Below are positions 3,677-19,438 of a DNA stretch of 64,000 nucleotides, piece after piece. The notes beneath the pieces are model-generated. The model did not search any database, had not been told where the DNA came from, and worked only from the letters and a program-made list of their open reading frames with translations. Position numbers and translations under genes: made by a program. Origin of the DNA: Candidatus Microgenomatus sp. (GTDB lineage: Bacteria; Patescibacteriota; Microgenomatia; UBA8517); the NCBI GenBank assembly GCA_020724555.1, contig DYGT01000006.1, forward strand, positions 1,649 through 65,648. Reading direction: 5' to 3'. How positions within the stretch are numbered: the first letter of the stretch is position 1; each line of letters opens with the position of its first letter.

Positions 3677-4345
3677 ATGACAATAAAGATGAAAAATAAG
3701 GTTAAAACTATCGTTCCTCTCCTGCTTGTTGTCCTATTGCTTTCACTTGGCGGTTTTTATTTGTTCAAATCATCCCATGATAAGTTTGCGCCTCCCCGCA
3801 AAGACGCTCCAATGGTGCAGTTTCGAGTAGACAAAAAAAATACCCTGATGGCAGTCACTGGTAATCTTCACTACTATGGCTTTGTTAAAGATGAAGAAGC
3901 CCTTGAATATGCCCTGGAACATACCAAAGACAATACTCCTGGTAAGCCTGGGGCAATTAAGATTGGCAATAACAGTATCGATACAGAGACTGCCTACGAT
4001 ATTTCTCAATCAATGACCGCCTGGGAAATAGCCAGAATTCTTCTTAATGAAGGCACACCCAGTATCAGAGACTGTGACCACGGTTGCGAGGAATATAACC
4101 CCTTTACTCCAGCGCTTCTGCCTGGAGGAGATATTGCTCCTACTTGGCAAGAGCGTATGCGGGCTAAATATAGCTGGGTAAAAAACTATGATGACTGTCT
4201 TAAAGCTATTGGTCATGATGGGGGTCAAGTAACTTCTGAGGAGGCTTCCAAGCGCACTGGTCACCCAAGAGTGTGTAATACAGCAGACGGTCGTTATTTT
4301 ATTCAAGGAAAAGAAGGCTGGAGTGATTATCCGCCTTACCCGTAA
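3677..4345 (+). CDS. Secreted/membrane-anchored hypothetical protein
   Basis: 222 aa, N-terminal hydrophobic signal/anchor (IVPLLLVVLLLSLGGFYLF), several Cys. Confidence 0.5.
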   Translation: MTIKMKNKVKTIVPLLLVVLLLSLGGFYLFKSSHDKFAPPRKDAPMVQFRVDKKNTLMAVTGNLHYYGFVKDEEALEYALEHTKDNTPGKPGAIKIGNNSIDTETAYDISQSMTAWEIARILLNEGTPSIRDCDHGCEEYNPFTPALLPGGDIAPTWQERMRAKYSWVKNYDDCLKAIGHDGGQVTSEEASKRTGHPRVCNTADGRYFIQGKEGWSDYPPYP

Positions 4346-4358
4346 AGGAGGTGAGAAT

Positions 4359-5069
4359 ATGAAGATAAAAATTGTCATTGCACTACTGGTTATCGCCGCT
4401 CTGGGAAGTGTTTTTGTTTGGTCAAGGCAAAGTAGCAAAACTGCTTTGTTGCCATCAAAACAAACAACTAATGTAACAACCCAGGAAGAGACGATTATCC
4501 ATAATTTCATGGCAGAACCTAACCTCAAGCTGTCTTTTATTAAGACTGATTTACCGTTTCCAAGTTACTTCAGTGTCGGTAAAGTAACTCAGGTAAATGG
4601 TGGTGAGAATATGGAGGCGGTAGAGGAGTGGACACGCCAGGTTAATGTTTATCGCCAAAAGGAATTACTTAATGGACAATGCTCGGTTTATGAGTATCAC
4701 ATTGATCCCAGAAGTCATTCCTTGGTAGCAGTTGTCGTTGCGGGGTTAAAGCCTAATGAAATTGAGGCATACAAGGTAAAGGGTATTGAGTGTAAGACCG
4801 AGGTTCACAACTTGCCAGAAATATCTAAGGCAGAGGCTGAAAGTGTTGCCATGGAATATCTAAAACGAGTCTTACCCAACTTTGACCAAATTAAAGACAG
4901 GCTTGTTTATTCTCACGGTAAAACGCACAGTTGGCTATGGGAAAACAAAGACTACCGCTTACCAGATGGTTTAGAAGGTCGACCATACTCATATCCCACT
5001 ATCCGCATATCAGTAGACAACAACAAAAACATTCAGTATTGGAATACTGTGTCGTTGTTTGAGAAGTAA
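4359..5069 (+). CDS. Secreted/membrane-anchored hypothetical protein
   Basis: Start placed at the Met after a strong SD (aaggaggtgagaat-ATG); N-terminal TM/signal (IVIALLVIAALGSVFVW). Confidence 0.5.
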   Translation: MKIKIVIALLVIAALGSVFVWSRQSSKTALLPSKQTTNVTTQEETIIHNFMAEPNLKLSFIKTDLPFPSYFSVGKVTQVNGGENMEAVEEWTRQVNVYRQKELLNGQCSVYEYHIDPRSHSLVAVVVAGLKPNEIEAYKVKGIECKTEVHNLPEISKAEAESVAMEYLKRVLPNFDQIKDRLVYSHGKTHSWLWENKDYRLPDGLEGRPYSYPTIRISVDNNKNIQYWNTVSLFEK

Positions 5070-5169
5070 GGTCTGTTAGAAGTTCCTCTCGGTCTTTTTA
5101 GAAACTAAACAGAGGTGAAACTTTTATCCACCCCAAGCACGAAAGCCCCATACAAGTCAACACACGGCG

Positions 5170-6177
5170 TCACCTTGAGTAAAATTCCCTAACTGAAGCA
5201 GCTAAAACTCTTACATCTTGGTTGTCTAATCTGAAAAACGGTTTACCCAGTACACTTTCTGGAATACCCATTTTTCTAATAACATCCAGCGCCTGCGCTT
5301 GTGAGACTATCGTTCCACCCCTACTCCTGTCATGTTTGCTAAGAGTCGAAACATCTCTTGAGCCATTGTATTCGCCAAGCATTTGTCTAAGTTCTCTTTT
5401 GACATTTGACCTATCTCGTCTATGTGATTCTCGTTTAGATAAATCACCGCCTCCACCTCTCTGGCTGGCATCAACAAGTGCCTGTTTCATCTCATTCACA
5501 ACCAAACCAAATCTGCCTGTTCTTCTAAACAAATATGCAAATATATAGTCAGCGGGGTTGGCTTCGATTTCCCTCCTGTCCTTAGGGTCAAACTCCATCA
5601 CAATAGCATCTGTTCTCGGCTGCGGGTAAAAAGCTTCTCTGGACACTTGTGCTAAAACTCTTGAGTCAAAAAAAGTCTGACCCAGCAACGACAACTTCCC
5701 AAAGCCCATACTAGCCTCCGATTCCTGAAACTCTCTGGCGACATTATCTCCCAACATCAAGACAGCGCTGCTTATAGGTAAATCTATCAGCTTATACATA
5801 AAAGGTTCAGTAATATGGAAAGGTAAGTTTGCGACAATTTGAGCCTCCTCATCTCTACCAATCAAAGAACCAAACTGCACCCTCAAGGCGTCGCCAAATA
5901 TAAATCTGATTCTTGGGTTTTTTTCTTGAATACCCTCTAAAATAGGTTGAAATCTCTTGTCAATTTCTATCCCAATGACCGAACCAGCTCGTTGAGCAAG
6001 GGCTTCAGTTACATGTCCTATTCCAGAACCAACCTCAATGACTTTTGACCCTTCTATCACTGTAGCAACAAGCCTACCGATCACCCTTTCGTCAATCAAA
6101 AAATGCTGACCCAACCGTTCGCTAAGATCGATTCCTTCTGCCTCTAGTTGCGATGTAATAATTCTCTCTCTATTCAT
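5170..6177 (-). CDS. rRNA adenine N6,N6-dimethyltransferase family protein (KsgA/RsmA/Erm-type), paralogue 1, with an Arg/Ser-rich insertion
   Basis: GQHFLID SAM-binding motif, VIEVGSGIGHVTEAL, NLPFHITEP (motif IV NLPY-like), C-terminal helical domain ending MGIPESVLGKPFFRLDNQDVRVLAASV that resembles the KsgA C-terminus. ~50-aa low-complexity insert (RGGGGDLSKRESHRRDRS...). Confidence 0.8.
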   Translation of the reverse strand: MNRERIITSQLEAEGIDLSERLGQHFLIDERVIGRLVATVIEGSKVIEVGSGIGHVTEALAQRAGSVIGIEIDKRFQPILEGIQEKNPRIRFIFGDALRVQFGSLIGRDEEAQIVANLPFHITEPFMYKLIDLPISSAVLMLGDNVAREFQESEASMGFGKLSLLGQTFFDSRVLAQVSREAFYPQPRTDAIVMEFDPKDRREIEANPADYIFAYLFRRTGRFGLVVNEMKQALVDASQRGGGGDLSKRESHRRDRSNVKRELRQMLGEYNGSRDVSTLSKHDRSRGGTIVSQAQALDVIRKMGIPESVLGKPFFRLDNQDVRVLAASVREFYSR

Positions 6178-6198
6178 AAGTTGCGTATTTTAACATTC

Positions 6199-6897
6199 CT
6201 AAGAGACGGGTTCAATTGTGCCTGTTTTAAGCATAAATTGTATAACCTGAGTAGTTGTGTTCCTAAAGTCTCCTGTATTGTCAACACAAAATAGCCTGTT
6301 TTTAGAAACTTGTCTACTTTGTCGAATAATTTCATCTTGCAAAAGAAGTAGTTTGTCAGTTGAGTATCTTTCATTCAACTCTACATTATCCCCCCCAAAC
6401 ATTTTTCTTCTGTTACTTTCTAGCTGTTGCGCATTAGAAGTTACAATTATTAACCTATTATTACCACTTAGATATGGTGCTACTATTGATGGTATTAATT
6501 GGACTCCTTCAAACAATACATTTTGTGCTCCTTGAACTTCTAATTTAGGAATAATGTTGCGCAAAGGTGAACAAACTATTTTAGAATAACCATTGAATCC
6601 TGCAATTAGGCTTTGTGGAGAATAGGAACCATCTCCAATGGCAATATAGCTGTCACAAGAGCCATAGTTAACAAACGGGCTTCGCTCGGCTTCTGGTTTA
6701 TGGCTTTCTATTTCCTGGACTACAAGTCTAATAATGTCCATCGATTGTAAAGTGCAATTTTCAATTAATGAGGTAATAAGCGGAGCAATAGTAGACTTTC
6801 CCGATAGCGGGACTCCAGTAATAAAAACTAGAGTTCCCTGTCTGGTAAATCTGTATTCTGGACTTCGAGCTAATTCTGGATGGTTTAATTTTTCCAT
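6199..6897 (-). CDS. P-loop NTPase/kinase, substrate unknown
   Basis: Walker A VFITGVPLSGKSTIA near the N-terminus; 232 aa; start abuts the stop of the upstream SHMT-like gene. Confidence 0.55.
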   Translation of the reverse strand: MEKLNHPELARSPEYRFTRQGTLVFITGVPLSGKSTIAPLITSLIENCTLQSMDIIRLVVQEIESHKPEAERSPFVNYGSCDSYIAIGDGSYSPQSLIAGFNGYSKIVCSPLRNIIPKLEVQGAQNVLFEGVQLIPSIVAPYLSGNNRLIIVTSNAQQLESNRRKMFGGDNVELNERYSTDKLLLLQDEIIRQSRQVSKNRLFCVDNTGDFRNTTTQVIQFMLKTGTIEPVS

Positions 6898-8154
6898 TTA
6901 TTCATACCAAACATCATTCTTTCTTTTAATTTTTAGTAGTTTTTTCAAATTATTTTTCGATTCTGTCTGGAGAGAGGTATCGGTCGGATCTGCTAGGTTT
7001 TGCAGAATTATGTCAGCAATAATCCCCACATCTTCTTCAGAATAACCTCTAGCAGTAATCCAAGAAGTTCCCAATCTGATTCCACTGGCTACATACGGCT
7101 TTAATGTCTCCCCAGGAACAACTTGTCTATTTGTAAGAATTCCAAGACTTTCTAATAGCTCCTCAGCTTCCTTACCCGTTAAGCCGAATACTCGGTAAGT
7201 GTTTAAAACCATTAAGTGTGTATCGCTTCCTCCAGTAACAACCAAATCAGGATATTGATTAAACTTTTGCTCGAAAATCTTAATATTTCTGATTACTCGG
7301 TCAATATAGTCATTAAACCAAGGCGAGCCGCAATCAATGAGACACTGGGTCATTTGATAAATTCTTCTTAGCGGCACACTCGATTGGACTCCTGGATGGA
7401 TAGCTTTATCTATTTTTTGGCTTAAATCGTTTTTACATAGCAATATCCCGCCATGTGGACCAAGCATAGTTTTATCTAAAGTTAAGGTAACTACATCACA
7501 GTGGGGAAATGGTTGTGGAAACCTTCCTGCTACAATTAAACCTGCTGGATGAGATAAATCTGCCATTAGATATGCCCCAACTTTTTTTGAAATTTCTGCC
7601 AATCTCTTAAACTCAATTATTCGAGGATATGAAGATGCGCCACAAACAATTAGTTTTGGTTTAAATTCCAATGCTTTTCTTTCTACTTCCTCGTAATCAA
7701 GCCAGCCGTTCTCATCAACGCCATAAAAGTCAAAATTATAAAAGATACCCGAGAAGTTCCTGCTCATGCCGTGGGTTAAATGTCCACCAGCGTCAAATCT
7801 CATAGCTAGCGCTCTATCACCATAATTAAGAAGTGCTTGATATACTGCCTGATTAGCTTGACTCACAGAATGTGGTTGGACATTAGCGTGTTCCGCTCCA
7901 AACAATTTACATGCAGCTTCAGCAGCTATCCTTTCAATACGGTTAAACCCCTCTACACCAGCATAAGGTCTATTTTCAAGTAACCCCTCAGCTATTGCAT
8001 TGTGCTTCAGGGGTAGATTATAAAAATACTTCATAGGAGTAGGACTTGCGGGGGCTATTAGGTTGATGGTATTCAAGTCATATTGATCTTGCTGTTTAGC
8101 AGCTTCGACTAACTCCTGTCCCAGCTTTTGAAAATATTCGCTTACTCGCCTCAT
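6898..8154 (-). CDS. Serine hydroxymethyltransferase-like PLP-dependent enzyme (divergent second SHMT-family copy; possible transaldolase)
   Basis: 418 aa; SHMT fold-type I signatures GGHLTHG and TLDKTMLGPHGG (PLP-lysine motif; canonical glyA in this window has TTHKTLRGPRAA). Clearly more divergent than the glyA at 48453-49769. Confidence 0.75.
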   Translation of the reverse strand: MRRVSEYFQKLGQELVEAAKQQDQYDLNTINLIAPASPTPMKYFYNLPLKHNAIAEGLLENRPYAGVEGFNRIERIAAEAACKLFGAEHANVQPHSVSQANQAVYQALLNYGDRALAMRFDAGGHLTHGMSRNFSGIFYNFDFYGVDENGWLDYEEVERKALEFKPKLIVCGASSYPRIIEFKRLAEISKKVGAYLMADLSHPAGLIVAGRFPQPFPHCDVVTLTLDKTMLGPHGGILLCKNDLSQKIDKAIHPGVQSSVPLRRIYQMTQCLIDCGSPWFNDYIDRVIRNIKIFEQKFNQYPDLVVTGGSDTHLMVLNTYRVFGLTGKEAEELLESLGILTNRQVVPGETLKPYVASGIRLGTSWITARGYSEEDVGIIADIILQNLADPTDTSLQTESKNNLKKLLKIKRKNDVWYE

Positions 8155-8155
8155 A

Positions 8156-9304
8156 TTATTTAAATTTTTGATAAACTTTTAAGATTGACTCGGCGAAATC
8201 GATAATCTCATTTTGACTCAATCCAGGGTGCACATAAAGATTAAAAACTCTTTTTGAAATTTCGACGGCTACGGGGGTTAACGCAACATTACCGATACCA
8301 ATTTTTCGACATATTTGAGTTTCGGGGAGAGTTAATGGGTATTGGCGCTTAATAGGAACTCCTTGTTTCAATACCTCTCTGACAAACTGGTCCCTTTTAT
8401 TAGTAAGCCTTTTTGGTAAAATCCCAGTCAGATAACAATAAACATTGTACGTGTCATCGGCTTCCTTTTGGAAAGTAAGATCTGTATTTGCTAATATCTC
8501 TTTGTAAAGCATGGCATATTTTCTTCTAACCTTGTTTAGGTTATCCAGTCTTTCTAACTGCCTCAGACCTAATGCCGCCTGTATTTCTGTCATCTGATAG
8601 TTAAATCCTATGTGATCAAAATCGTAATCATCCACATTCGGATGTTTAATGCCATTGTTTAATATTGAACGAAGAGTATTAGCGTATGATTGAGAGTTAG
8701 TTGTTATCATTCCACCCTCACCACACACGAGATTTTTTGTTTGATAGAAACTAAAACAGCTAATGTCACCGAAAGAGCCGACAAACCTATCTTTGTATTT
8801 AGCGCCTACAGCTTGTGCGCAATCTTCTATTAGGATTAAATTATTTTCTTTGGCTATCTTGACTAGTTCATCCATTCTTGCAGGTTGACCATAAAGGTGC
8901 ACAACAATCAAGGCTTTTGTTCGTTTGGTGATCTTTTTTAAAACATCCTTGGGATCTAAATTAAAATCATCCTCACAAATGTCTACGAAAACTGGGGTAG
9001 CACCTTCTTGAATTACCACAGAAGCATCCGCCATAAAAGTAAGAGATGGAACCAATATTTCATCTCCTTTTTTCAAATTTAATGCAGCCATGGTCGCATG
9101 CAGAGAGGATGTGCCTGAAGAAGTGGCAAATGAAAATCTCCTTCCGAGCAATCTTGACATTCTGTGTTGAAACAACTTAACATAAGGTCCTCCTTCAGGC
9201 TTAGAAAGGAACCCAGACTTTAAAACTTTCACTACATTGTCTATACCTTTCTTGTCGACATTTTGTTTGTTCATTTTCTTTAATAAAGTCGTTATCTTGT
9301 TCAT
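8156..9304 (-). CDS. DegT/DnrJ/EryC1/StrS-family PLP-dependent (sugar) aminotransferase
   Basis: 382 aa; family-typical layout including SFYQTKNLVCGEGGMITTN (PLP-Lys region) and CAQAVGAKYKDRFVGSFGDISCFSF. Confidence 0.85.
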   Translation of the reverse strand: MNKITTLLKKMNKQNVDKKGIDNVVKVLKSGFLSKPEGGPYVKLFQHRMSRLLGRRFSFATSSGTSSLHATMAALNLKKGDEILVPSLTFMADASVVIQEGATPVFVDICEDDFNLDPKDVLKKITKRTKALIVVHLYGQPARMDELVKIAKENNLILIEDCAQAVGAKYKDRFVGSFGDISCFSFYQTKNLVCGEGGMITTNSQSYANTLRSILNNGIKHPNVDDYDFDHIGFNYQMTEIQAALGLRQLERLDNLNKVRRKYAMLYKEILANTDLTFQKEADDTYNVYCYLTGILPKRLTNKRDQFVREVLKQGVPIKRQYPLTLPETQICRKIGIGNVALTPVAVEISKRVFNLYVHPGLSQNEIIDFAESILKVYQKFK

Positions 9305-9306
9305 GC

Positions 9307-10407
9307 TTAACTTACTCCTAGACCTCCAATTAATTGTTTAAGGCTATCTTCCATGTCATATATGGTGCTAATTTTCCCCGCTAAGATGCTCATGTAATAT
9401 GGGTTTTGGGAATGAATGGTGATAAGAGTTGGTCTTGAATCGTCTTTCTCGGAGGACATTAAAATAGGTTTTACTTCGAAGATTGAGTTTAGATATTCAA
9501 AGTCGATATTCTTTTTGAGATAACTCCTAGCGAGAGATTCCGCCCTTTTATCATCTGGTTTAGCTCTTATACCATTAATGTTCTGCGGTTTTGTGTAGGA
9601 AGTATTTAGTGGAGTAAAACTTACTGATGACAAAGAATAGATACTACCATCACCAAACGGCATTAGAGAGAAAAATGGACCATCCATCACGGTTAGCCCA
9701 ATTCCTGAAAATCCATTATTCATCTTGCATATTTTAAGTTCACAAAGCTCATATTTAATATCATAACCATTAAACCCAAACATTTTATTGATCTCGTTAA
9801 CATTACTGTATGTTGCGTTCACAATAAGCGGTGCTTCGAGAAGAGAAGCGTCTTTTAATGTTAAAACATACTTGGAATCTGAAACTTTTTGAGCGGTGGG
9901 GAAGTTTTGGTAATAAATGTCAATATTTTTATTGTTTGAGAGTTGGTTTAGAAAGTATTCCTTAAGTTTTGCGTAATCAAAACATGCCTCTTCTGCTTCA
10001 AAAACAACATCTACTCTATCTTCCTGGAAAAATAGTGACCTACTAACTTCTTTTAATGGAATTCCAACTTTTCTACAAAATCTAATATATTCTTCTGGTG
10101 ATGTCTTAGAATTTTCTTTCGAAATTGCATAATATTGTTTAAAAGGTTTTAGTATAGCGAAGCTAAAGTCGTTGCAAAAACGGTTGTAATAATTTGCTGT
10201 TTTTCGTGCGGTTTCTAAGCTTCTCGGATAGTGATATCCCCTGTGAACCCTTGCTTGATTGATCTTACTTGCTCTCTCAAAAATTTCTTTTTCTTTTTCC
10301 AATACCGCCACTTTTAAGCCTTTGGACGATAGCACCTGTGCGGCATAAAGACCAAAAATTCCCCCGCCAATAATAATCGCATTATATTTTCTAATTTTTT
10401 TACTCAT
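9307..10407 (-). CDS. FAD/NAD(P)-binding oxidoreductase
   Basis: N-terminal Rossmann dinucleotide-binding motif YNAIIIGGGIFGLYAAQVLSSKGLKVAVLEKE; 366 aa. Confidence 0.7.
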   Translation of the reverse strand: MSKKIRKYNAIIIGGGIFGLYAAQVLSSKGLKVAVLEKEKEIFERASKINQARVHRGYHYPRSLETARKTANYYNRFCNDFSFAILKPFKQYYAISKENSKTSPEEYIRFCRKVGIPLKEVSRSLFFQEDRVDVVFEAEEACFDYAKLKEYFLNQLSNNKNIDIYYQNFPTAQKVSDSKYVLTLKDASLLEAPLIVNATYSNVNEINKMFGFNGYDIKYELCELKICKMNNGFSGIGLTVMDGPFFSLMPFGDGSIYSLSSVSFTPLNTSYTKPQNINGIRAKPDDKRAESLARSYLKKNIDFEYLNSIFEVKPILMSSEKDDSRPTLITIHSQNPYYMSILAGKISTIYDMEDSLKQLIGGLGVS

Positions 10408-11399
10408 GATTCTTTAGATTTAAATGGTATTTGAATTCCTTCTGGATTTATCTGAACATAATCTCTATATTCTTTGATATTTTTTAACTCTTTGATTGTC
10501 TCTCTGAGGAGCTTGATATAAGGTCTATAAATAATCCTTTCTACTTCTGGAGAGATAGGGTAATCGTTGTGCCTGTCGCCAGTGATAATATATCGGTAAT
10601 TTTTCAAATTCATTCTAAAACTGTGGTAGTGATAATAGACTAACGGATAGCTGTCATTCAGCAAAATTTGATCATTTTTCTTGGTGATATCATATTTCTG
10701 AATATTCCACGGGGCAGCATTTGTCCCAACATTAACAAGTTCTCTCACTTTTTTAAATCGTGTTCTCCAATCGTCCAAATACTTCTGCTCTCCAAACTTA
10801 CCATCTTCAAATTTTGATGAACACCATTCCATCGTTCTTTTATGCCACCAATCCAGAATTTTTTTGCTATTTCTGTTTTTCCTAAAACACTGAAAAGAGG
10901 TGCAATAATAGCCAACTCTAACAAAGTCATTTACAAATTGGAAAGAAAAATTGTTTGGCTGGATCAACACATCGGCATTGCCAAGCTCCTTGAAGATTAC
11001 TTCAGGAGATTGAAAAAACATTAAGTCGCAATCACAAGAAGAGATAAAATCCGTGTCCTGCTCTAATAAAACCTTCCTAGTTATAAAAGGGTTGCAAGCC
11101 CAATAGTATTCATATCTTTTTACTTTCGAAGCCTTAACCTTCAGCAATTCCTTATTTTCGAACTCTGTTGGATGATAAATTTTGATATTTTTGTAGTTCA
11201 GCTTCCTAAAAATATTGTAAGCTATATCGTCAAAGCAAAACATGTGTAAGAGAAAGTTTTTATGAACTTTTGACAGAGATTTGTATAAAACAATCGCTTT
11301 ATGCAAATAATTAGCGTCGGTGCTAGTTGCGATATGCCTAACTGATGATGTCCTGACGGATTTATTATTTTGCATAATTAATCGGATCAACAGACCCAT
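10404..11399 (-). CDS. Putative nucleotide-sugar (glycosyl)transferase-like protein
   Basis: 331 aa soluble protein with a DxD-like acidic cluster (SSCDCDLMFF) and overall resemblance to small capsule/LPS-type transferases; weak assignment. Confidence 0.4.
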   Translation of the reverse strand: MGLLIRLIMQNNKSVRTSSVRHIATSTDANYLHKAIVLYKSLSKVHKNFLLHMFCFDDIAYNIFRKLNYKNIKIYHPTEFENKELLKVKASKVKRYEYYWACNPFITRKVLLEQDTDFISSCDCDLMFFQSPEVIFKELGNADVLIQPNNFSFQFVNDFVRVGYYCTSFQCFRKNRNSKKILDWWHKRTMEWCSSKFEDGKFGEQKYLDDWRTRFKKVRELVNVGTNAAPWNIQKYDITKKNDQILLNDSYPLVYYHYHSFRMNLKNYRYIITGDRHNDYPISPEVERIIYRPYIKLLRETIKELKNIKEYRDYVQINPEGIQIPFKSKES

Positions 11400-12048
11400 T
11401 CCTTTGGAATGCCTCTAATCTTGATTTACAATTACTACACCTACCACAGGCAATATCAGAATTGTTATGGCATGACCAAGTCAACTCGAAGGGCACTCCA
11501 AGCTCAAGACCCAACCTGACTGCACCGATCTTGTCAGTTTGAATTAAGGGGGCAACTATCTGAATTGACGGCTTTATAAGAGTTCCCTCCTCAATTAAAC
11601 GCTGCATTGCCTCGACAAATTTTGGACTGTTATCTGGGCAGATATGGTCTCCGCCAGTTGAACCTATACAAACGGCCCCAGCCCTTAAATACTCTGCATA
11701 AGCAATAGCCTGGCTCTCCAAAATAGCGTTTCTGTTGGGAACATATTCATTAACAGCAGTTGTCAGCGTTTCACTCTGAGTTAATGAGACTCCTGGTAGA
11801 GATTTAAGAAGTGGAACTTCAACAACCTTTAAACTTGCACCAAAGTGTTTAGAAAGTGCCTGGGCACACCCCAATTCCTTCTCATAAGTTTTTTGTCCCC
11901 AATCGAAAAATATAAAATGCAACTTAAAACCAGCTCTAGCCATTAGGGCGGCTGCTACAGCGCTATCCAAACCACCACTTACGGTGCATACAGCACTTCT
12001 GCGATCGATTGACTCAAGTCTTTTTTGAATTTCAATTTCTTTTCCCAT
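11365..12048 (-). CDS. queC: 7-cyano-7-deazaguanine synthase QueC
   Basis: PP-loop SGGLDSAVAA, C-terminal zinc motif CGRCSNCKSRLEAF; start chosen at MGKEIEIQ (ATG 12046-12048), directly after the queE stop. Confidence 0.9.
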   Translation of the reverse strand: MGKEIEIQKRLESIDRRSAVCTVSGGLDSAVAAALMARAGFKLHFIFFDWGQKTYEKELGCAQALSKHFGASLKVVEVPLLKSLPGVSLTQSETLTTAVNEYVPNRNAILESQAIAYAEYLRAGAVCIGSTGGDHICPDNSPKFVEAMQRLIEEGTLIKPSIQIVAPLIQTDKIGAVRLGLELGVPFELTWSCHNNSDIACGRCSNCKSRLEAFQRNGSVDPINYAK

Positions 12049-12049
12049 A

Positions 12050-12832
12050 TTAAGTTCTTCTTTTAGGACCAAACCATATAAGCTGATTTCTAAGTGTGAT
12101 TCTCCAACCCCTAACTTCAACTACTTCTCTAATTACACCCAAGTGTGCCTCTACCTCTTCCTTTGTATGTCCCTCAGGCATCAATAAGATTTTTCCATTG
12201 TCTAAATTACATTCCTCAATAATCTTGTCGATTTCATCTAAATCAGAAGGTCTTGTAACCACGAATTTAAATTGCGATTTGGGCAATCCATTTATTACTC
12301 TCAAAACTTCTGGTTTATATCTTCTCTGTAGAGTATTTCCACTATTCTCGAGCTTTGGGGAACAATTAAATTGACAAGTATGCAACTCTGGAATAGGCAT
12401 AACTGTCCCATTTGTTTCTATTTCCACTTTCCACCCTAGCAGTTTTTGCAGAAGCCTGGCAATCTTCTTTTGCTGCAACAATGGTTCGCCTCCAGTTACA
12501 ACCAGCCTTCGCTCTTTTGATGGGGAGAAAGTTGACTCCCAAGCATTACTAATCTTGATGGCAGCTTCATTGTAAGACCAATCTTCTGGTTCTTGCCAAA
12601 ACTCCCGCTTGCTAGTATCCCAAGTATATCCAGTATCACATAACCATCCGTTTGGAACACCGCATGTTAAATTACAGTAGTGAAGGCGCAAAAAGACAGA
12701 AGGTAGACCTGCAGTAATACCCTCTCCCTGAAAAGTCGTAAAAACTCCATCACCACTAACCTTTAATTTATCGGGCTGAGGTTTTATTCTCTCTCGATCC
12801 TCTGGTGTCGGTTTATATATTTCTCGAGTCAT
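12050..12832 (-). CDS. queE: 7-carboxy-7-deazaguanine synthase QueE (radical SAM)
   Basis: Radical-SAM cysteine cluster CNLTCGVPNGWLCDTGYTWD in a QueE-length protein; 4-nt overlap with queD. Confidence 0.85.
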   Translation of the reverse strand: MTREIYKPTPEDRERIKPQPDKLKVSGDGVFTTFQGEGITAGLPSVFLRLHYCNLTCGVPNGWLCDTGYTWDTSKREFWQEPEDWSYNEAAIKISNAWESTFSPSKERRLVVTGGEPLLQQKKIARLLQKLLGWKVEIETNGTVMPIPELHTCQFNCSPKLENSGNTLQRRYKPEVLRVINGLPKSQFKFVVTRPSDLDEIDKIIEECNLDNGKILLMPEGHTKEEVEAHLGVIREVVEVRGWRITLRNQLIWFGPKRRT

Positions 12833-13299
12833 AATCTTTTTTCCAATTTTTCAATATCCTTCCGTGTGCAGATAGCCGCACTTGTAGGTGTTTCCCACAA
12901 CTTGATAGAGTAAAGTCTCAAACCCGTTTTGTATTTATCTTTTATGTGACCATCAAGCTGTTTAAATATCCAGGCGGCAATATTTTCAGAAGTAGGCACA
13001 AATGGAACAATAATATATTTCTGTTCGGCATTTTCCTTGAAGAATTTTACAAGAACCTCGTCTTTATTCCACACCATAAACCCATGATCTAACACATTAT
13101 GAACCCGTTCTGTCGCAATTTTCTTGATATCGCCAAAATCTATCACCATCCCTTCATTAGAAACGCCCTCTATATTTACAAGATCGCCCTCAACACATAT
13201 CTCGGCTTTATATCTGTGACCATGCAAATTTCTACACTGCGAGTGGTGATTAGTTACCCGATGCCCCATATCCCACTGGATTTCCTTTATAACTTTCAT
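12829..13299 (-). CDS. queD: 6-carboxy-5,6,7,8-tetrahydropterin synthase QueD (PTPS family)
   Basis: 156 aa, CRNLHGHRYKAEICVEGD zinc/catalytic motif of the PTPS/QueD family. Confidence 0.85.
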   Translation of the reverse strand: MKVIKEIQWDMGHRVTNHHSQCRNLHGHRYKAEICVEGDLVNIEGVSNEGMVIDFGDIKKIATERVHNVLDHGFMVWNKDEVLVKFFKENAEQKYIIVPFVPTSENIAAWIFKQLDGHIKDKYKTGLRLYSIKLWETPTSAAICTRKDIEKLEKRL

Positions 13300-13300
13300 A

Positions 13301-13885
13301 TCATTTGCTTTGTTGGCTGTTTATTTCTCTATAAAATTGATCTATTAATTTAGTGTTCTTTTTTAGTAACCCTCTAAATATCGTTGTTTTCGTAATACAA
13401 TCTCTTTTTCTTACACCTCTCATACTCATACAAAGGTGTTCTGCTTCAATTGTGACGATTAATCCTCTCGGATTTAAATTTTCCTCTAAAGCATTGGCTA
13501 TTTGGTTAGTGAGATTTTCTTGCGTTTGAAATCGGTGGCTCAAAATTTCCGTCAATCGGACAAACTTAGAGAGTCCAAGCACTTTCCCGTTGGGAATATA
13601 ACCAATATGGATTTTCCCAAAAAACGGGAGCATATGGTGTTCACAGAGACTATGAAACCCTATATTCGTTAGGGTTACTAAATCTTTGTAACCGTTGCTT
13701 TTAAATGTTTTGAAGACTGTCTTTGGATCTTGAGAGTACCCACTAAGCAACTCTTCATACATCCTGAAAACTCTTATGGGTGTTTCTGCTAAACCATCTC
13801 TGGATATATCTTCACCGAAACTATTCAACAACTGGAGGATAAAATTGGTGACTAATTCTTTTCGAGAACCACTCTTATTTGTCAT
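13301..13885 (-). CDS. folE: GTP cyclohydrolase I FolE
   Basis: HSLCEHHMLPFFGKIHIGYIPNGKVLGLSKFVRLTEILSHRFQ is the conserved GCH-I core (CEHH ... VLGLSK). Confidence 0.9.
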   Translation of the reverse strand: MTNKSGSRKELVTNFILQLLNSFGEDISRDGLAETPIRVFRMYEELLSGYSQDPKTVFKTFKSNGYKDLVTLTNIGFHSLCEHHMLPFFGKIHIGYIPNGKVLGLSKFVRLTEILSHRFQTQENLTNQIANALEENLNPRGLIVTIEAEHLCMSMRGVRKRDCITKTTIFRGLLKKNTKLIDQFYREINSQQSK

Positions 13886-14001
13886 ATGTTGGGTTTTAAC
13901 CTTGCACGACGGCCTACACTTTGATGTTGTGCAGCACGCCCAACTACCGTTGCAATAACTGAATTATACTACAATAAGACGGTATTTGCAAAAATTACGA
14001 A

Positions 14002-14967
14002 TTACCTGAGAGCTCTTGAAAGTGCTTTTAAGTTTTCATTACTCAGTTGTTGAAAGGGTTTGTCCAGAACATCATTAGGAATATCCATTTCTGAAATAAT
14101 AGCCCTTGCTTGATTTTGGGTTAGTGTTTCACCCGAAAGTCGTGCAAGTTCAATTAGTCCTTCTTTTAAGGAATTCTTTGTCAATGGGCTGTATCTTGAT
14201 GTTACAAACAATCTTTTTAACAGATAATCCCGCTTGCTCAAGTTCATCCCCTCTCTTGTTTTGGGCGTTAATCTTATGATTGCTGAGTCAGTTCTTGGAA
14301 CTGGAAAGAATTTCTTTTTTTCTATTGTTCTGATTACTTGAGGATTAAAAAATGTCTGAGTTAATAAAGTTAGTTGACCAAATGAAGGATCAGTTTCGCT
14401 GCCTACCTCCATTGCATGCATAAACCTCTTACCGACGACAAGGGTAGCATCATGCATTGGAAACTCCGTAATTTTATGTAAAAATGGTTCAGTAATATGG
14501 TAGGGTAGACTAGCAATGATCTGCGTTCGCCCCTTGCGTTTCCCAACCAATGCAGACATCTCTAAAGCAAGAATATCGCCGTAAACTATTCGAACATTTG
14601 GATTGGCTCTTTCAATTTGTGTCAAAATTGGGCTATAGCGCTCGTCTATCTCTACAGAGACAACTTCATTAGCTCTTTTTGCGAGTGCTTCCGTTAATTG
14701 CCCAACTCCAGCTCCAATCTCAATAACTGTTGCTCTCGATACAACAGAATCCGCAAGTGTATTAATTGCATCCTCATCCACCAAAAAATGTTGTCCCAGA
14801 TTTTCGTTGGGTCTAATTCCCAATCTATTAAGCCTGTCAATAATAAGTTTTTTTAAGTCGTCTTCTCTCGAATAAAGTCTTTCCATACTTTTGATTTTAT
14901 TTTGTATTTTACCCATAATTATAAGGTATTTTACCAAGAAACTAGTTACAGAATCCATAAGATACAA
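14002..14967 (-). CDS. rRNA adenine N6,N6-dimethyltransferase family protein (KsgA/RsmA/Erm-type), paralogue 2
   Basis: GQHFLVD, VIEIGAGVGQLTEAL, SLPYHITEP, C-terminal DIPNDVLDKPFQQLSNENLKALSRAL (KsgA-like C-terminus). The true start may be an internal Met (MERLYSRED at about 14886). Confidence 0.8.
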   Translation of the reverse strand: MYLMDSVTSFLVKYLIIMGKIQNKIKSMERLYSREDDLKKLIIDRLNRLGIRPNENLGQHFLVDEDAINTLADSVVSRATVIEIGAGVGQLTEALAKRANEVVSVEIDERYSPILTQIERANPNVRIVYGDILALEMSALVGKRKGRTQIIASLPYHITEPFLHKITEFPMHDATLVVGKRFMHAMEVGSETDPSFGQLTLLTQTFFNPQVIRTIEKKKFFPVPRTDSAIIRLTPKTREGMNLSKRDYLLKRLFVTSRYSPLTKNSLKEGLIELARLSGETLTQNQARAIISEMDIPNDVLDKPFQQLSNENLKALSRALR

Positions 14968-15338
14968 AGTTACCCCTCGTAAAAGCCAGATGAGAAGGCT
15001 TAGAAAGTTCAGCCTGCTACATCCAACAGTTGTTGTGTATTATACTGTAGGGTAATTTCTGGAAATTCCAGGATGTCTAACCAGTTTGCTCGCCTAAAAT
15101 CGTTCCATTTATCCAGCCAAATAGGACGAGAGGGTCGTAAAGACCTCTTTTGGGCTGATTTATCGGGCATTTTTGCAGGTTCGAAAATCTTTTCTCCAAA
15201 TTATCCCGAATTGGTCCCTTTCGACCCGTTAGCCTCAACCACTGCATTGTGTATGAGTTTGAAGACCAAATAAGGGGTAGTTTTTCTGTTTTAAGTAAGC
15301 AACATCTAATTTTAATTTTTGCTAAAGATTGGTCATAT

Positions 15339-15529
15339 TTATTTTTTGTTCCTCAGTATTGTTTCAATGTCTTTGGGATCGTAACGCCTGTCGCCTCGCT
15401 TATTAACTCTAATAGCCTTTAATTTCCCGCTTTTACCCCACCTGCGCAAAGTCTCTAATGCACATTCAGAACTTCTGCTGCCTGTTTTATGGTTAAAAGT
15501 TTTGGTAATTCACTTTTGGTCTTCGGCAT
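15339..15529 (-). pseudogene. Excisionase-family HTH gene interrupted by a frameshift
   Basis: Minus-strand reading gives MPKTKSELPKLLTIKQAAEVLNVH then a stop. The +1 frame continues LETLRRWGKSGKLKAIRVNKRGDRRYDPKDIETILRNKK, which together form an excisionase-type HTH (LTIKQAAExLxVSxxTLRRWxKxGKLKAIR). Not in the ORF track because each piece is under 60 aa. Confidence 0.45.
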
Positions 15530-15793: not shown

Positions 15794-15951
15794 AGATAAA
15801 CAAGGAATGGCACTTGGCAAACAGGATGCCTAAAAATCCAACACTCGATCAGAGAGTCAAATGGCATGTTGAACACGCCAGAAATTGCTCTTGCCGTCCT
15901 CTTAGTGGAAAAATCTTGGAAGAGATTAAGAAACGAGGCATTAAAGTCTAA
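15790..15951 (+). CDS. Small conserved hypothetical protein
   Basis: MKINKEWHLANRMPKNPTLDQRVKWHVEHARNCSCRPL... reads like a conserved small-protein family; ATGA overlap with the preceding zinc-ribbon ORF. Confidence 0.4.
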   Translation: MKINKEWHLANRMPKNPTLDQRVKWHVEHARNCSCRPLSGKILEEIKKRGIKV

Positions 15952-16202
15952 GCCTGAATCTGTGCTATTGTAGGACTTTCAAAGGTTAGAGGTGGTGGCG
16001 TAGAGTGTATTATCCTCCCGCAATCGTCTCTCTGGGTTATTATTCTCACTTTTCTTTTGTTGGGAAGTATCAATCCAAACCTGAAGTCTAATGTTGTGGT
16101 TTGGTAAGTTCTATCCCAATCGAAAGTTTTGACATGAATGAAGTATATCAAAATTTGAACTAATTTCTTATTCTGCCTTTCGCCATTTTGTTTGACCTTC
16201 AT
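15948..16202 (-). CDS. Small hypothetical ORF, copy A of a locally repeated sequence
   Basis: 84 aa; paralogous to the ORF at 19431-19613 (YFIHVKTFD...ILPNKRKVRIITQRDDCGRIIHSTPP versus YFIHVKTYD...ILPNKRTVTIITKRDEYGRIIRSIPP). Confidence 0.35.
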   Translation of the reverse strand: MKVKQNGERQNKKLVQILIYFIHVKTFDWDRTYQTTTLDFRFGLILPNKRKVRIITQRDDCGRIIHSTPPPLTFESPTIAQIQA

Positions 16203-17539
16203 GATCGTATAATTTTACCCCCATCTGAGTTAATCTGTCTCTGACCTGATCAGCTTCTTCATAGCGTTTTGCTTTTCTCAAAGCATTTCTCTGCTCAATT
16301 AGTCGTTCGATTTCCCTTATATCATCAACCTCTTTGTGTTCAAACCTAAAAACGCCAAAAACTTTGTCAATTTTTCTAAAAAACTCTATTGCACTTTTCC
16401 CAGCCTCACCGTCAATATTTCTTGCCTTCAGATAATCATATATAAGAGACAAGGCTTGGGGGGGTGTTAAAGTCATTATCAAGAGCTGCTATTACACCTG
16501 CTTTTAACTCATCCACCAGTTCTTTCTCTTTAGCCGAGGCATACCCACTATCAAGTCTAAACATAAACTCATCAATTCTCTGCAATGCCTGCCTAGACTG
16601 TTCCAGGACATCTTCATCGTATGTCAATGTAGATCTATAATGACCACTAATAAACATAAATCTCAATACCCGCGGATCATTTGCTTTTAGTGCCTCTCTA
16701 ATAGTTACTATGTTTCCCAAACTCTTTGACATTTTCTCTTCTTTCATGTTCAAAAACCCAGCATGAAGCCAATATTTTACAAATGGGACTTTGCCAGAAA
16801 CGGCTTCCATCTGTGCTATCTCTGCCTCATGATGGGGAAACATTAAATCAACTGCTCCACCGTGAATATCGTACTGAGGCCCAAAGATAGTTTCTGTAAT
16901 TGCTGTATCCTCGATATGCCATCCCGGTCGACCGTTCCCTATATCAGTCTCCCAATAAGGCTCTCCTTCCTTTGCAAATTTCCACAAGCAAAAGTCATTA
17001 GGTCCACGTTTTTCAGGATCTTCATCAACTCGAGAAACACCGTCGGACGGTTTCACATCAGTCCGCCCCGAGAGCTTGCCATAATCAGCGAATCTAGCAA
17101 TTTCAAAATAAATTCCACCTGAAGTTCGGTAGGCATAACCTTATTCTTGGAGTCTCTTTACTTGATCAACGATTTGAGGTATAAAGTCTGTTGCATTAGC
17201 ATATTCAGTTACAGCATCATTCCCAAGTGCCCGCATATCATCTATGAATATGTCTCGATACTTATCGGCTAATTCACGCCAAGAAGTTCCTCTTTCGCGA
17301 GAGCGATTTATAATCTTATCATCAATATCAGTTATATTTTGTAAGTAGTGTACATCATAACCTCGATACCTTAGATATTTAACAATAAAATCAAATTGGG
17401 TAAATGTCTTTGCGTTGCCGATGTGTGCGTAATCATACACAGTAGGACCGCAGACAAACATTTTTACTTCTCTATCGTCGCCAATCGGCTCAAAACTCTC
17501 AGTGCTTCTGGATAGAGTGTTGAAAATTTCAATACTCAT
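16168..17539 (-). pseudogene. cysS: Degenerate second copy of cysteine--tRNA ligase (cysS), disrupted
   Basis: Three consecutive minus-strand ORFs carry the CysRS N-terminus (CGPTVYDYAHIGNAKT), core (HIEDTAITE..., KMSKSLGN) and C-terminal anticodon-binding region. Fragment 1 ends with an in-frame TAA where the intact copy at 37453-38883 has Lys (LQE*GYAY versus LEEKGFTY). Fragments 2 and 3 are offset by a frameshift in a G7 run (16448-16454). Confidence 0.8.
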
Positions 17540-17898: not shown

Positions 17899-18423
17899 AT
17901 GGGCAAAAGTATAGGTTTCTTTCGAAAAAATAAAGACTCGAATAAAGAGTTAGTAGTTTTGTTTGAGAAAATTCAAGAGATCAGAGCAAAAAGTTCTGAT
18001 CGGGACTGGGAAAATAATAATTTTGTCCAAGAACTAGAAGTTTTAGAGGGAAGAGTTCGTCGAAAAACATTAAAACTCCTAGAGAGAAAAAAACTAAAAA
18101 CCGCTGATGATTTTTATAGAGCATCATTTATCTTCCACCATGGTAAGGATTATAAGTCATATTCAATAGCAACGGCTCTTGCTGCCATTAGTCATCATTT
18201 GGGAGACCCATGGGGAAAAAATTTATATGCTGTTGCTTTGGATAGACTATTATTAAGCATCGGTCTACCGCAACAATTTGGTACTCAATACGTTAAAAAG
18301 GGAGGTAAATATCAACTTGCTCCCTTTAATAAATCCACCACAGACAAAGAAAGAAAGAAATATCTTGTTGAACCACTGAGAAAACTAAAAACAAGAGAAA
18401 AAGAACTAAATAAAAAAAATTAA
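17899..18423 (+). CDS. Hypothetical protein (lysine-rich C-terminus), between precursor and ligase
   Basis: 174-aa ORF 10 nt downstream of the precursor; no recognised motif. Confidence 0.45.
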   Translation: MGKSIGFFRKNKDSNKELVVLFEKIQEIRAKSSDRDWENNNFVQELEVLEGRVRRKTLKLLERKKLKTADDFYRASFIFHHGKDYKSYSIATALAAISHHLGDPWGKNLYAVALDRLLLSIGLPQQFGTQYVKKGGKYQLAPFNKSTTDKERKKYLVEPLRKLKTREKELNKKN

Positions 18424-19438
18424 TATCTATTACCTTTCAGAAGATCAACTATTTCATTGGAGATTGGAAGACCGGTCAAATCCTCTACCCAACCCCACTG
18501 ACCATTAGGATTAATTTCCAGAAAGATGTATCTTTGATCAGGGGTCAATATCATATCTATAGCCCCAAAGTTAAGCCCTAGCCTACGAACAAGGTTAATG
18601 ATTTTCTGCTCAATCTCACCAGGAAGTACGTGTACTCTGTGCACTAAATTTAAGGTATCTCTTCTCCAATCAACTTTAGCTTTGTCACTCTCTTGTGAGT
18701 GAATCTCAACTGAGAAAACCTTGTCACCAACAACTGTAATTCTTAATTCAATATCTTTCGGTACATATTCTTGAAAAAGCGCTGGTGTATATTTGACTCT
18801 TTCAATATCTACAATATCATTTTCAGAGACCAAACTTGTATAAATGGCAGAACCCTGACTTTCATCTAAAACTATTCCGCCTCCGAGTCGCTTAATAATC
18901 ACTCCTTTTGACTTGGCGGTTTTTCTGAAAAATCTATCTGCATCCTCAGGGTTATTTGTTATTAAGGTTTTCGGTATCTCAAGACCAACTTCGCTAGCAA
19001 CTCTAAGCTGTCTTATTTTTAACTCTGCCACCCGATTCTGCTCAGGATGATTAACCCAAACACAATCTAATAATTGCCACAACCCCATAATCGTGGCTCT
19101 ACTTTCTTGTTCTGCAAAAACATGAATTGCCGGAGAAAACTCGGGTGGAAATTGAAAATCTGCAGGGCGTCGATACCAAACGCCGGTAACTTGATTACCA
19201 CGAATTTGCCTACCCCGAGGAAATCTTAGGATCTGCTCTCTTTCATCCCCATTAAACAAGAGAGAGAGACAGAAACTTTTAGAGGAAAATCCTCTGTATT
19301 AAATCTAACAAAAGGAATTCTTTCTTCATTCAACTTTTTAGCAATAATATCCACATGCGGATCCAGTTTCCGACTAACTATCAAAATTTGAGGACTTTCC
19401 TCCCGAAGATTCTCTTTGTTAAACTCTCTCTCAATCAT
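18420..19438 (-). CDS. Microviridin/graspetide-type ATP-grasp ligase (MdnC/MvdD-like), interrupted by a frameshift in an (AG)5 run
   Basis: Two overlapping ORFs (19226-19438 and 18420-19259) align colinearly to MdnC-type ligases: ILIVSRKLDPHVDIIAKKLNEERIPFVRFNTEDFPLKV (cf. LIVTFSRDNESIPLVIKAIEAMGKKAFRFDTDRFPTEV), VTGVWYRR, ELRITVVGDKVFSVEIHSQESDKAKVDWRR, FGAIDMILTPDQRYIFLEINPNGQW. The frame switch falls inside (AG)5 at 19259-19268. Confidence 0.8.

Follow-up and report, generated by a model that had tools for sequence, protein, structure and literature searches.

The DNA analysed here, called the window throughout, is a stretch of 64,000 nucleotides from Candidatus Microgenomatus sp. (Patescibacteriota; GenBank assembly GCA_020724555.1, contig DYGT01000006.1, positions 1,649 to 65,648). 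Between its positions 5170 and 14967, eleven genes run head to tail on the minus strand, combining enzymes of 7-deazaguanine synthesis with a glycosyltransferase-like (GT-like) protein, a flavoenzyme, two pyridoxal phosphate (PLP) enzymes, a kinase, and two homologues of the rRNA methyltransferase KsgA, designated Ksg1 and Ksg2 (Table 1). An earlier annotation made from the letters alone, the sequence-only reading, had described the set as a 10-gene operon, although its own list names eleven genes. The open reading frames (ORFs) all lie where it had placed them, its family labels were confirmed by profile searches or, for the GT-like ORF, by a structure model, and the close packing it had described, interrupted by a single 116-nt gap, was borne out: from Ksg2 to Ksg1, with the most plausible start codons, the spacings are 116, 1, -4, 1, -11, -4, 2, 1, 0, and 21 nt.

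Contiguity and shared orientation agree with the single operon that had been proposed, but Ksg2 is probably a transcription unit of its own. The promoter-like site in the 116-nt gap is the top-scoring minus-strand match to a sigma-70-like promoter, tied with an overlapping register and with one plus-strand site, in a scan that overall showed no enrichment over shuffled sequences. Given this site and the terminator-like hairpin after Ksg1, the likely operon extends from folE to Ksg1 (5170–13885), with Ksg2 transcribed separately. Upstream of folE neither a riboswitch nor a stable leader structure was found, the best Rfam match having E = 2.8 and the fold z-score being -0.2. The G+C content of the cluster is 0.378, against 0.393 for the window, and falls to 0.34–0.35 in the GT-like gene and the neighbouring DAO-family oxidoreductase gene.

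Table 1. Genes and signals of the deazaguanine cluster, in window coordinates, from its upstream end.
Feature	Position	Strand	Evidence
Ksg2, short KsgA/RsmA-like methyltransferase	14002..14916	-	Pfam RrnaAD, 129.6 bits; 304 residues from ATG; longest ORF reaches 14967
Promoter-like site TTGCAA-17-TATAAT	13963..13991	-	In the 116-nt gap upstream of folE; 10/12 match
FolE, GTP cyclohydrolase I	13301..13885	-	Pfam, 226.6 bits; TIGR00063, 201.3 bits, above cutoff 181.6
QueD, 6-carboxytetrahydropterin synthase	12829..13299	-	PTPS, 105.7 bits; TIGR03367, 86 against cutoff 89.25; CxxxHGH motif
QueE-type radical SAM enzyme, 7-carboxy-7-deazaguanine synthase	12050..12832	-	Weak, 45–70 bits to five QueE NCBIfam models
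Non-canonical QueC-family ATP-dependent enzyme	11365..12048	-	Pfam, 161 bits; TIGR00364, 138.4, below cutoff 150.3
GT8-like retaining GT-A glycosyltransferase	10404..11375	-	AlphaFold model and Foldseek; DxD is D123-C-D125
DAO-family FAD-dependent oxidoreductase	9307..10407	-	Profile match
DegT/DnrJ/EryC1 sugar aminotransferase	8156..9304	-	Pfam, 338 bits
SHMT-like PLP enzyme	6898..8154	-	NF000586, 372.6, above 335
P-loop kinase	6199..6897	-	Weak 2-phosphoglycerate-kinase/KTI12 similarity
Ksg1, long KsgA-like methyltransferase	5170..6177	-	RrnaAD; NLPFHITEPF; basic insert of ~45 residues ahead of the C-terminal helices
Terminator-like hairpin after Ksg1	5112..5134	-	

The gene combination recurs in divergent loci

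Related loci were sought with the GT-like protein, the long methyltransferase, and QueC as queries and were read with 10-kb flanks; E-values from these locus scans are relative to the candidate stretches only. The same combination, in other gene orders and orientations and at 30–70% protein identity, is present in at least ten other metagenomic loci (L004/L005, L006, L007, L008, L088, L089, L090, L092, and L096, with variants in L095 and L173–L175), about a dozen of the loci being independent. Because it recurs rearranged in so many divergent loci, the combination is not a matter of chance. The recurrent unit comprises queCDE-folE with a GT8-like gene, usually a DegT gene, often an SHMT-like gene together with one for a P-loop kinase, and one or two KsgA-like methyltransferase genes, and the linkage of deazaguanine and sugar genes that the sequence-only reading had taken for a system is conserved across divergent genomes and therefore dedicated rather than fortuitous. 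Homologues carry the names Gottesmanbacteria, WWE3, Levybacteria, Roizmanbacteria, and 'Patescibacteria group'.

To count families, all ORFs of nine candidate phyla radiation (CPR) loci were clustered and Pfam calls were added. FolE, QueD, QueE, and the QueC family are found in all nine, the QueD of L004 by its Pfam PTPS call only and the QueC of L088 in a longer, divergent form. The GT-like, DegT, and RrnaAD families each occur in eight of the nine: L092 has a more distant GT8, L090 is without DegT, and the locus that lacks RrnaAD is cut by a contig end. The SHMT-like gene is present in 5/9, the P-loop kinase in 3/9 and always directly after the SHMT-like gene, and a PLP-like protein with no family name also in 3/9; a Ddl-like ATP-grasp gene occurs in two (L006 and L008). 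L096 is a further example beyond the nine. Other accessory genes include an alanine racemase in L008, APH-family kinases in L004 and L088, and SbnA/SbnB-like genes in L004.

Two variants depart further from the window. L095 (1–7025) encodes a DHQS/Fe-ADH-like protein, a QueC-like protein, a PIG-L deacetylase, DegT, a GT4 glycosyltransferase, a GFO/IDH/MocA dehydrogenase, and RrnaAD, beyond which lies a gene for a group II intron reverse transcriptase; it shares only the QueC-like and RrnaAD genes with the window and has neither an SHMT-like gene nor the kinase. The L095 set recalls paromamine/mycothiol-type logic, in which a GT4 enzyme and a deacetylase yield a free sugar amine. L173 (2455–11712; likewise L174 and L175) carries FolE2 in place of FolE, QueD, SbnA, SbnB, a QueC-like protein, a NodU-type carbamoyltransferase, a GT2 glycosyltransferase, an SHMT-like protein, a kinase, and a long RrnaAD protein with the same signature and basic insert as Ksg1. 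Identity to the window is 51% for the QueC-like protein, 68% for the SHMT-like protein, and 47% for the kinase. SbnA, which scores above its equivalog cutoff, and SbnB synthesize L-2,3-diaminopropionate (L-Dap). This cluster adjoins the gene for threonyl-tRNA synthetase, and its host encodes PurD and therefore may not be a Patescibacterium. The core shared by the window and L173–L175 thus consists of the QueC-like, SHMT-like, kinase, and long RrnaAD genes, and the parts exchanged across variants are the amine source (DegT, SbnAB, PIG-L, or Ddl-like) and the transferase (GT8-like, GT2, or GT4).

A route to 7-carboxy-7-deazaguanine and a non-canonical QueC

Homology shows that FolE, QueD, and QueE together would convert GTP to 7-carboxy-7-deazaguanine (CDG); for the window QueE the match is weak, and an orthologue of it accompanies the cluster in all nine CPR loci. 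The sequence-only reading had seen a complete route from GTP to preQ0. Its first three enzymes stand, but the preQ0 step is insecure, as the QueC belongs to a clade without residues that are essential in Escherichia coli.

The canonical QueC signature comprises SGGxDS, YxQxHxxE, VPxRN, YPDC, and C(x)8CxxCxxC, and each of the substitutions Y35A, R99A, Y131A, and Y189A abolishes the function of the E. coli enzyme (2026 study, PMC13082051). The window QueC keeps SGGLDS, VPNRN, and the zinc cysteines and reads FDWGQKT, ICPDNS, and SCHN against the canonical FDYGQRH, GYPDC, and TCYN, so that YxQxHxxE, YPDC, and the Cys-Tyr pair are all altered. The same holds for eight cluster QueCs (the window protein and seven orthologues), which keep SGGLDS, VPxRN, and the zinc cysteines and read (F/A)(D/N)(W/Y)GQKT, ICPDNS, and SCHN; relative to E. 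coli they carry Y131->C, C134->N, Y189->H, and mostly Y35->W. YPDC and the Cys-Tyr pair are likewise missing from every one of the 120 closest QueC homologues. Of a representative library at 50% identity, the ~20 nearest members share the departure and weaker matches are canonical. By these signatures the cluster QueCs are a discrete non-canonical clade.

The best solved-structure match of the window QueC is Cap9 (59.5 bits), ahead of canonical QueC (48.9 bits), and there is a weak match to the QatC model (27 bits against a cutoff of 280). The QueC homologues RoyL, Cap9, and QatC join CDG to amines instead of making preQ0, and RoyL-type enzymes take Lys, Orn, 2,4-diaminobutyrate, and D-Ala-D-Ala. 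The clusters encode amine-making enzymes, and no N-acyltransferase for the DegT product was found in any of them. Taken with the QueC precedents, this makes an amide of CDG with the amino sugar, or with L-Dap in the variants, at least as likely, by analogy, as a huimycin-type glycoside of preQ0.

The L088 cluster, otherwise typical, holds in place of the usual 227-residue QueC a QueC-family protein of 376 residues (5882–7012; 74.7 bits to QueC) with an N-terminal extension of ~100 residues and a C-terminal extension; it adjoins BpsA_C/AdoMet decarboxylase genes and prophage and insertion sequence (IS) genes.

Sugar-tailoring enzymes, a remodelled SHMT, and its partner kinase

The two genes to which the sequence-only reading had drawn particular attention (10404–11399 and 9307–10407) proved to encode a GT8-like protein of GT-A fold and a DAO-type flavoenzyme. 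The first has no Pfam match, and its AlphaFold (AF2) model has a pLDDT confidence score of 93.5. The top Foldseek matches are LARGE1, WbbM, glycogenin, LgtC, and GlyE, all retaining GT-A enzymes of GT8 type; both Asp residues of its DxD motif are invariant in the family alignment, and homologues carry PF03407/PF01501. Its matches by sequence to GT8 and GT34 proteins of the PDB are marginal. Fold and motif in the model together mark the protein as a GT8-like retaining GT-A glycosyltransferase. Exact look-up of the longest-ORF products (331 residues for the GT-like protein, and a 632-residue GT2 protein) returned no match, probably owing to start-codon differences; the GT-like protein has been recorded in a 279-residue form.

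The DAO gene is an accessory, present in three of the nine loci and replaced by GFO/IDH/MocA dehydrogenase genes in L092 and L095, and a search of solved structures with its product gave FAD-motif matches only. Among solved structures, DegT comes nearest to aminotransferases of sugars and inositols and to perosamine synthase.

The sequence-only reading had called the second PLP enzyme a divergent relative of serine hydroxymethyltransferase (SHMT), and it is indeed a remodelled member of that family. An ordinary, housekeeping SHMT is encoded at 48453–49769, with FolD and ThyX, so that the cluster gene is an extra copy; the two proteins are 35% identical. The SHMT-like enzyme is the most conserved protein of the cluster (66–70% identity across variants), passes the general SHMT subfamily model, and retains the PLP lysine in TLDKT together with residues equivalent to E57, Y65, and R363. 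The changes specific to its clade (SEN->PAS, Y55->I, Y64->P, H228->D, R235->H, GG->SS, and N347->Q) fall at positions that are identical in the housekeeping SHMT of the window and in one solved reference compared, and which we take, from E. coli SHMT, to serve the folate and PLP sites. Present beside a second copy and altered at these positions, it does not fit the profile of a canonical, sole housekeeping GlyA. It scores 80.8 bits against the fluorothreonine transaldolase model TIGR04506, whose cutoff is 650.

Wherever the P-loop kinase is present its gene lies directly downstream of that for the SHMT-like enzyme; solved structures matched it only in the P-loop. SbnA in L173–L175 and L004 would need O-phosphoserine, and one attractive reading, by analogy, is therefore that the pair comprises a serine-forming enzyme and a serine kinase. 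Another would make the SHMT-like enzyme a transaldolase, as in some nucleoside-antibiotic pathways.

Two forms of a KsgA-like methyltransferase

The cluster-linked RrnaAD proteins (METHYLTRANSFERASES) form one subfamily, in which LP[FY]HITEPF replaces the usual NLPY(N/Y)I(S/T)(S/T)P, the C-terminal motif is KsgA-like (IPxxxLxKPFxxLxNxExRxL), and the residues that bind S-adenosylmethionine (SAM) are invariant. Ksg1 keeps all SAM and motif-IV residues; Ksg2 reads SLPYHITEPF, with Ser for the Asn of Ksg1. A long form, distinguished by a Lys/Arg-rich insert of ~45 residues, comprises Ksg1 and proteins in L004, L006, L007, L008, L088, L092, and L173, and a short form comprises Ksg2 and proteins in L006, L007, L090, and L092. 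Four loci have both forms next to the cluster: in the window and L006 the two bracket it, and in L007 and L092 they stand in tandem.

Against the ksgA model TIGR00755 (cutoff 171), Ksg1 scores 141.4 over the first 193 model positions only and Ksg2 scores 145.8 over positions 1–253 of 256; against the Erm model NF000499 (cutoff 212) the two reach 109–117 bits. In a Foldseek search with the Ksg1 model (pLDDT 85), KsgA/Dim1 structures rank first and ErmE ranks 42nd. Ksg1 and Ksg2 are thus, by modelled fold and SAM motifs, KsgA/Dim1-like rather than Erm-like. A metagenome scan with the RrnaAD alignment was dominated by generic KsgA through the GQHFL pattern, and only L093–L098 fell in the subfamily.

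One of these, a short-form protein in L098, has purely housekeeping surroundings and lies more than 10 kb from any cluster. An ordinary KsgA is therefore what the short form may be, and the long form a recruited duplicate; Ksg2 may be the housekeeping KsgA of this lineage and Ksg1 derived from it. The long form, by comparison, accompanies the cluster through changes of transferase, of amine source, and probably of host phylum, and this is our main argument that the Ksg1 type belongs to the system. The proposal that the bracketing paralogues are Erm/KsgA-type self-protection enzymes therefore needs revision: only the long form is a constant partner, the short form also occurs in housekeeping surroundings, and the modelled fold is not Erm-like.

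In our preferred reading Ksg1 would make the producer immune through a modification of its 30S subunit close to helix 45; alternatively, it might methylate the product directly or act in RNA hypermodification. KsgA methylation status controls susceptibility to the amino-sugar antibiotic kasugamycin, and in producers the methylation of rRNA is often coupled with kinases like the APH-family ones of L004 and L088.

Chromosomal setting

Searches for the tRNA-guanine transglycosylase (TGT), QueA, QueF, QueG/H, and DpdA families found no match in any of the ~12 clusters or in the 64-kb window, which extends to the whole window the earlier observation that tgt, queF, queA, and queG/H are missing from the operon and its neighbourhood. 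The absence of any TGT-family match from every locus also leaves the clusters without the DpdA protein of Dpd-type or phage DNA modification.

The rest of the window is ordinary Patescibacteria chromosome, with genes for ribosomal proteins, DnaX, RecR, topoisomerase, MreB, and a penicillin-binding protein. Relics of mobile elements lie on both sides of the cluster: a serine recombinase (~1–1157), an HTH_17 gene (~1218–1397), and DUF5659 on the low-coordinate flank, and a decayed second cysteinyl-tRNA synthetase (CysRS) and an apparent degraded excisionase-type frame on the other. The latter (~15200–15500, minus strand) is a broken frame resembling an excisionase/MerR-type helix-turn-helix protein (…LLTIKQAAEVLNVH*…, …KLKAIRVNKRGDRRYDPKDIETIL…). 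The recombinase, the HTH_17 gene, and the broken frame suggest that positions 1–15.9 kb are or were a genomic island, and IS or prophage genes also stand beside the cluster or its methyltransferase in L088 and L091. Lateral mobility and a patchy distribution fit these findings.

The decayed CysRS gene (15948–17539, minus strand) has an in-frame TAA at 17141–17143 and a frameshift near 16440–16480. Repaired, it scores as a genuine cysS (457 bits), although it shares only 34% identity with the intact CysRS (37453–38883). The gene calls are broken in the same way in the matching 94.5-kb JGI metagenome contig, so a window-specific error does not account for the damage. An MshC-like amine ligase was considered for this gene and rejected (288 bits to MshC, cutoff 485). 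Between the terminator side of the cluster and the mobile-element region, a full-length LOOT RNA (Rfam RF03000; 3486–3602, plus strand; 81.9 bits against a gathering threshold of 46.4) lies directly upstream of the overlapping plus-strand ORFs 3677–4345 and 4323–5069, for which no family match was found. Further along, a minus-strand gene at 18420–19259 encodes an ATP-grasp ribosomal-peptide maturase of MvdD/graspetide type (TIGR04187, 260 bits from profile position 58), possibly short at its N-terminus, with a 70-residue ORF just upstream (19226–19438) and a NUDIX gene nearby (19638–20147). The ThyX gene (PF02511; 50544–52175, minus strand) adjoins those for dCMP deaminase, MazG, the housekeeping SHMT, and FolD; its product, at 543 residues about twice the usual length, may be a tandem fusion. 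The minus strand carries nearly all genes of the window, and GC skew stays below zero along the whole of it, the cumulative value descending steadily to -8.3, consistent with a single replichore.

A proposed pathway and its rivals

We tentatively propose, with slightly less than even confidence, that 5170–13885 is a dedicated pathway to a 7-deazaguanine conjugate other than queuosine, that its product is directed at the ribosome, and that Ksg1 provides immunity. The QueC-family enzyme would activate CDG with ATP and couple it as an amide to an amine made by the cluster, preQ0 formation being less likely. For the window that amine would be an amino sugar made by DegT from a keto-sugar, which the DAO flavoenzyme may supply, and installed by the GT8-like glycosyltransferase. 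The SHMT-like enzyme and the kinase would add or supply a unit derived from glycine or serine and possibly phosphorylated. The product would most likely be a diffusible aminoglycoside- or nucleoside-like compound acting on the small ribosomal subunit, and Ksg1 would methylate the 16S rRNA of the producer.

Several points weigh against this proposal. The signature substitutions do not by themselves predict whether a QueC is a ligase or a nitrile synthase, and Cap9 itself keeps YxDC. No QueE was seen in L173–L175, and the RrnaAD subfamily occurs at least once, in L098, away from any cluster. No transporter or regulator is conserved across the clusters, ABC/MacB genes lying near the cluster only in L007 and L089. 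To our knowledge, Patescibacteria have not been recognized as producers of such metabolites, and we know of Erm/KsgA-type immunity for macrolide-type producers, not for deazapurine compounds.

A wider version of the proposal, which we regard as possible but rather doubtful, would posit a mobile, modular cluster family in Patescibacteria and at least one other lineage, in which a QueC-derived ligase amide-links CDG to amino sugars or diamino acids, the conjugates, a new class that unites nucleobase and sugar, hit the small subunit, and a KsgA-derived methyltransferase with a basic insert gives immunity.

Among the rivals, the one that survives best, though we think it unlikely, is that a deazaguanine-acylated or deazaguanine-glycosylated amino sugar is transferred by the GT8-like enzyme to an envelope glycan, S-layer protein, or pilin, the KsgA-like genes being housekeeping genes or a linked duplicate that plays no part in the pathway. 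The closest non-CPR relatives of the GT-like protein do lie in O-antigen loci, as GT-like, FdtA, and DegT modules beside Wzx and GT2 genes in Bacteroidota, Pseudomonas, and Campylobacter, and a scan of genome contigs with the GT alignment retrieved mostly such homologues and only two CPR loci. The sequence-only reading had held that membership of the sugar genes in an O-antigen operon would count against a linked system. Such modules do exist outside the CPR, but never with que genes, and the finding stands: every Patescibacteria cluster examined joins the GT-like and DegT pair to que genes, except L090 (no DegT) and L092 (with its more distant GT8). Also in favour of a glycan are the lack of an exporter in the clusters, the sugar epimerase/dehydratase genes near the cluster in L090 and L092, and accessory genes that vary as is typical of glycan loci. 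The clusters hold, however, no Wzx/Wzy, no lipid-carrier priming transferase, and no further glycan genes, and the persistence of the long RrnaAD gene despite changes of glycosyltransferase type and host lineage is hard to explain if it is unrelated.

In an RNA-modification island, an unlinked TGT, or an enzyme that goes unrecognised, would insert the base in tRNA or rRNA, glycosylation would follow, and the KsgA-like proteins would act on that RNA or ribosome too, as part of a hypermodification. The classical place of 7-deazaguanines is in nucleic acids, eukaryotes have glycosylated queuosines, and the methyltransferases keep the KsgA/Dim1 fold and its C-terminal RNA-binding helices, to which the long form adds a basic insert. 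We nevertheless judge this quite improbable, given clusters and a window without a TGT-fold protein, QueF, or QueA, the non-canonical QueC signature, and variant genes (SbnAB, a carbamoyltransferase, and Ddl-like) that fit small-molecule tailoring better.

Defence or DNA modification, whether as a Dpd-like deazaguanine in DNA or as Cap9/QatC-like deazaguanylation of a protein N-terminus, is very unlikely. The Cap9 and QatC similarities and the mobile-element relics here, in L088, and in L091 would agree with it, but neither a DpdA/TGT-like protein nor a CD-NTase nor QatA, QatB, or QatD is present, and Dpd, Cap9, and QatC systems have nothing that corresponds to the sugar and PLP genes. Viral contigs yielded only remote GT and ordinary SHMT relatives, without que or RrnaAD neighbours, and no related cluster. 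Finally, the dense one-strand packing of window genes and the apparent promoter of Ksg2 might allow that a preQ0 operon of housekeeping function, ksgA, and a sugar operon unrelated to them lie side by side by chance; this is hardly credible, being contradicted by the conservation of the combination in rearranged form across at least ten loci.

Comparison with known systems

No description of this gene combination, of a deazaguanine cluster in Patescibacteria, or of a link to KsgA was found in the literature searched, in keeping with the suggestion that the system had not been described. A survey of ~2 million genomes places 7-deazapurine clusters mainly in Actinomycetota and mentions neither Patescibacteria nor DegT, SHMT, or rRNA methyltransferases, and a survey of the QueC family does not mention the present neighbourhood. 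Of the features by which 7-deazapurine metabolite clusters are recognized, the cluster has a CDG/preQ0 core and tailoring enzymes and is free of an insertion enzyme, but no regulator or exporter was found among the profile matches within 5170–14967; the rule also demands that no tRNA-insertion enzyme be encoded genome-wide (bioRxiv 10.64898/2026.04.15.718813).

The core logic is shared with two known kinds of cluster, from which the enzyme families, the host, and the KsgA-like partner differ. The huimycin and dapiramicin clusters of Kutzneria and Micromonospora likewise pair a FolE-QueD-QueE-QueC core, without an insertion enzyme, with a glycosyltransferase (HuiG) and a SAM methyltransferase (HuiC), and their product is a sugar-bearing 7-deazaguanine. 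HuiG, however, is a GT4 enzyme, whereas the present transferase is GT-A/GT8-like, and in place of a small-molecule O-methyltransferase there is a homologue of KsgA/Dim1-fold RNA methyltransferases. DegT, the SHMT-like enzyme, the kinase, and the DAO enzyme are additions here, the QueC is non-canonical, and the host belongs to Patescibacteria rather than Actinomycetota. The peptidyl-7-deazapurine (roseomycin A, RoyL), Cap9, and QatC systems likewise set an off-signature QueC-family enzyme beside CDG genes and amine makers (ATP-grasp/Ddl-like, diamino acids), and ligate CDG to the amine without turning it into preQ0. Here the amine would instead be an amino sugar, or L-Dap in the variants; the cluster also has a glycosyltransferase and a KsgA-like protein, and it lacks a CD-NTase and QatB.

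Resemblances to three further systems are partial. The O-antigen module for dTDP-3-amino-3,6-dideoxyhexose (GT-like, FdtA, FdtB/DegT) also has a GT-like gene, 33–38% identical, beside DegT, but the CPR clusters lack the FdtA isomerase, the acyltransferase, Wzx, and Wzy, and the que genes are confined to the CPR. With KsgA/RsmA and Erm the methyltransferases share the fold, the SAM motifs, the N/S-LP-F/Y motif IV, and the C-terminal helical domain; they differ in their sub-cutoff scores, their own LP[FY]HITEPF signature, the insert of the long form, and the tie to a deazaguanine cluster. SHMT-family transaldolases of the LipK type occur in nucleoside-antibiotic pathways, and here too a second, remodelled SHMT-family enzyme stands inside a tailoring cluster, although it still passes the general SHMT model.

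Significance

The operon is apparently undescribed; its product is unlikely to be queuosine and probably joins a deazaguanine base to an amino sugar. Known settings of 7-deazaguanines are tRNA (queuosine and archaeosine), the DNA of phages and bacteria, a small number of antibiotics of actinomycetes, and, as a recent addition, proteins that undergo 'deazaguanylation'. The cluster would add a further use, in organisms whose genomes of <1 Mb discard most biosynthesis, and its retention across many lineages of such reduced genomes implies an important function, for example in competition or in interaction with a host cell. It offers a discrete QueC clade with testable chemistry, a remodelled SHMT, and a KsgA-derived methyltransferase subfamily, which may be a resistance determinant of a new kind. 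If the clusters do make CDG-amide conjugates and protect their hosts by KsgA-type methylation, they would represent the first conserved natural-product pathway in ultra-small episymbiotic bacteria, and Ksg1 and its relatives a new family of resistance-type rRNA methyltransferases in these organisms.

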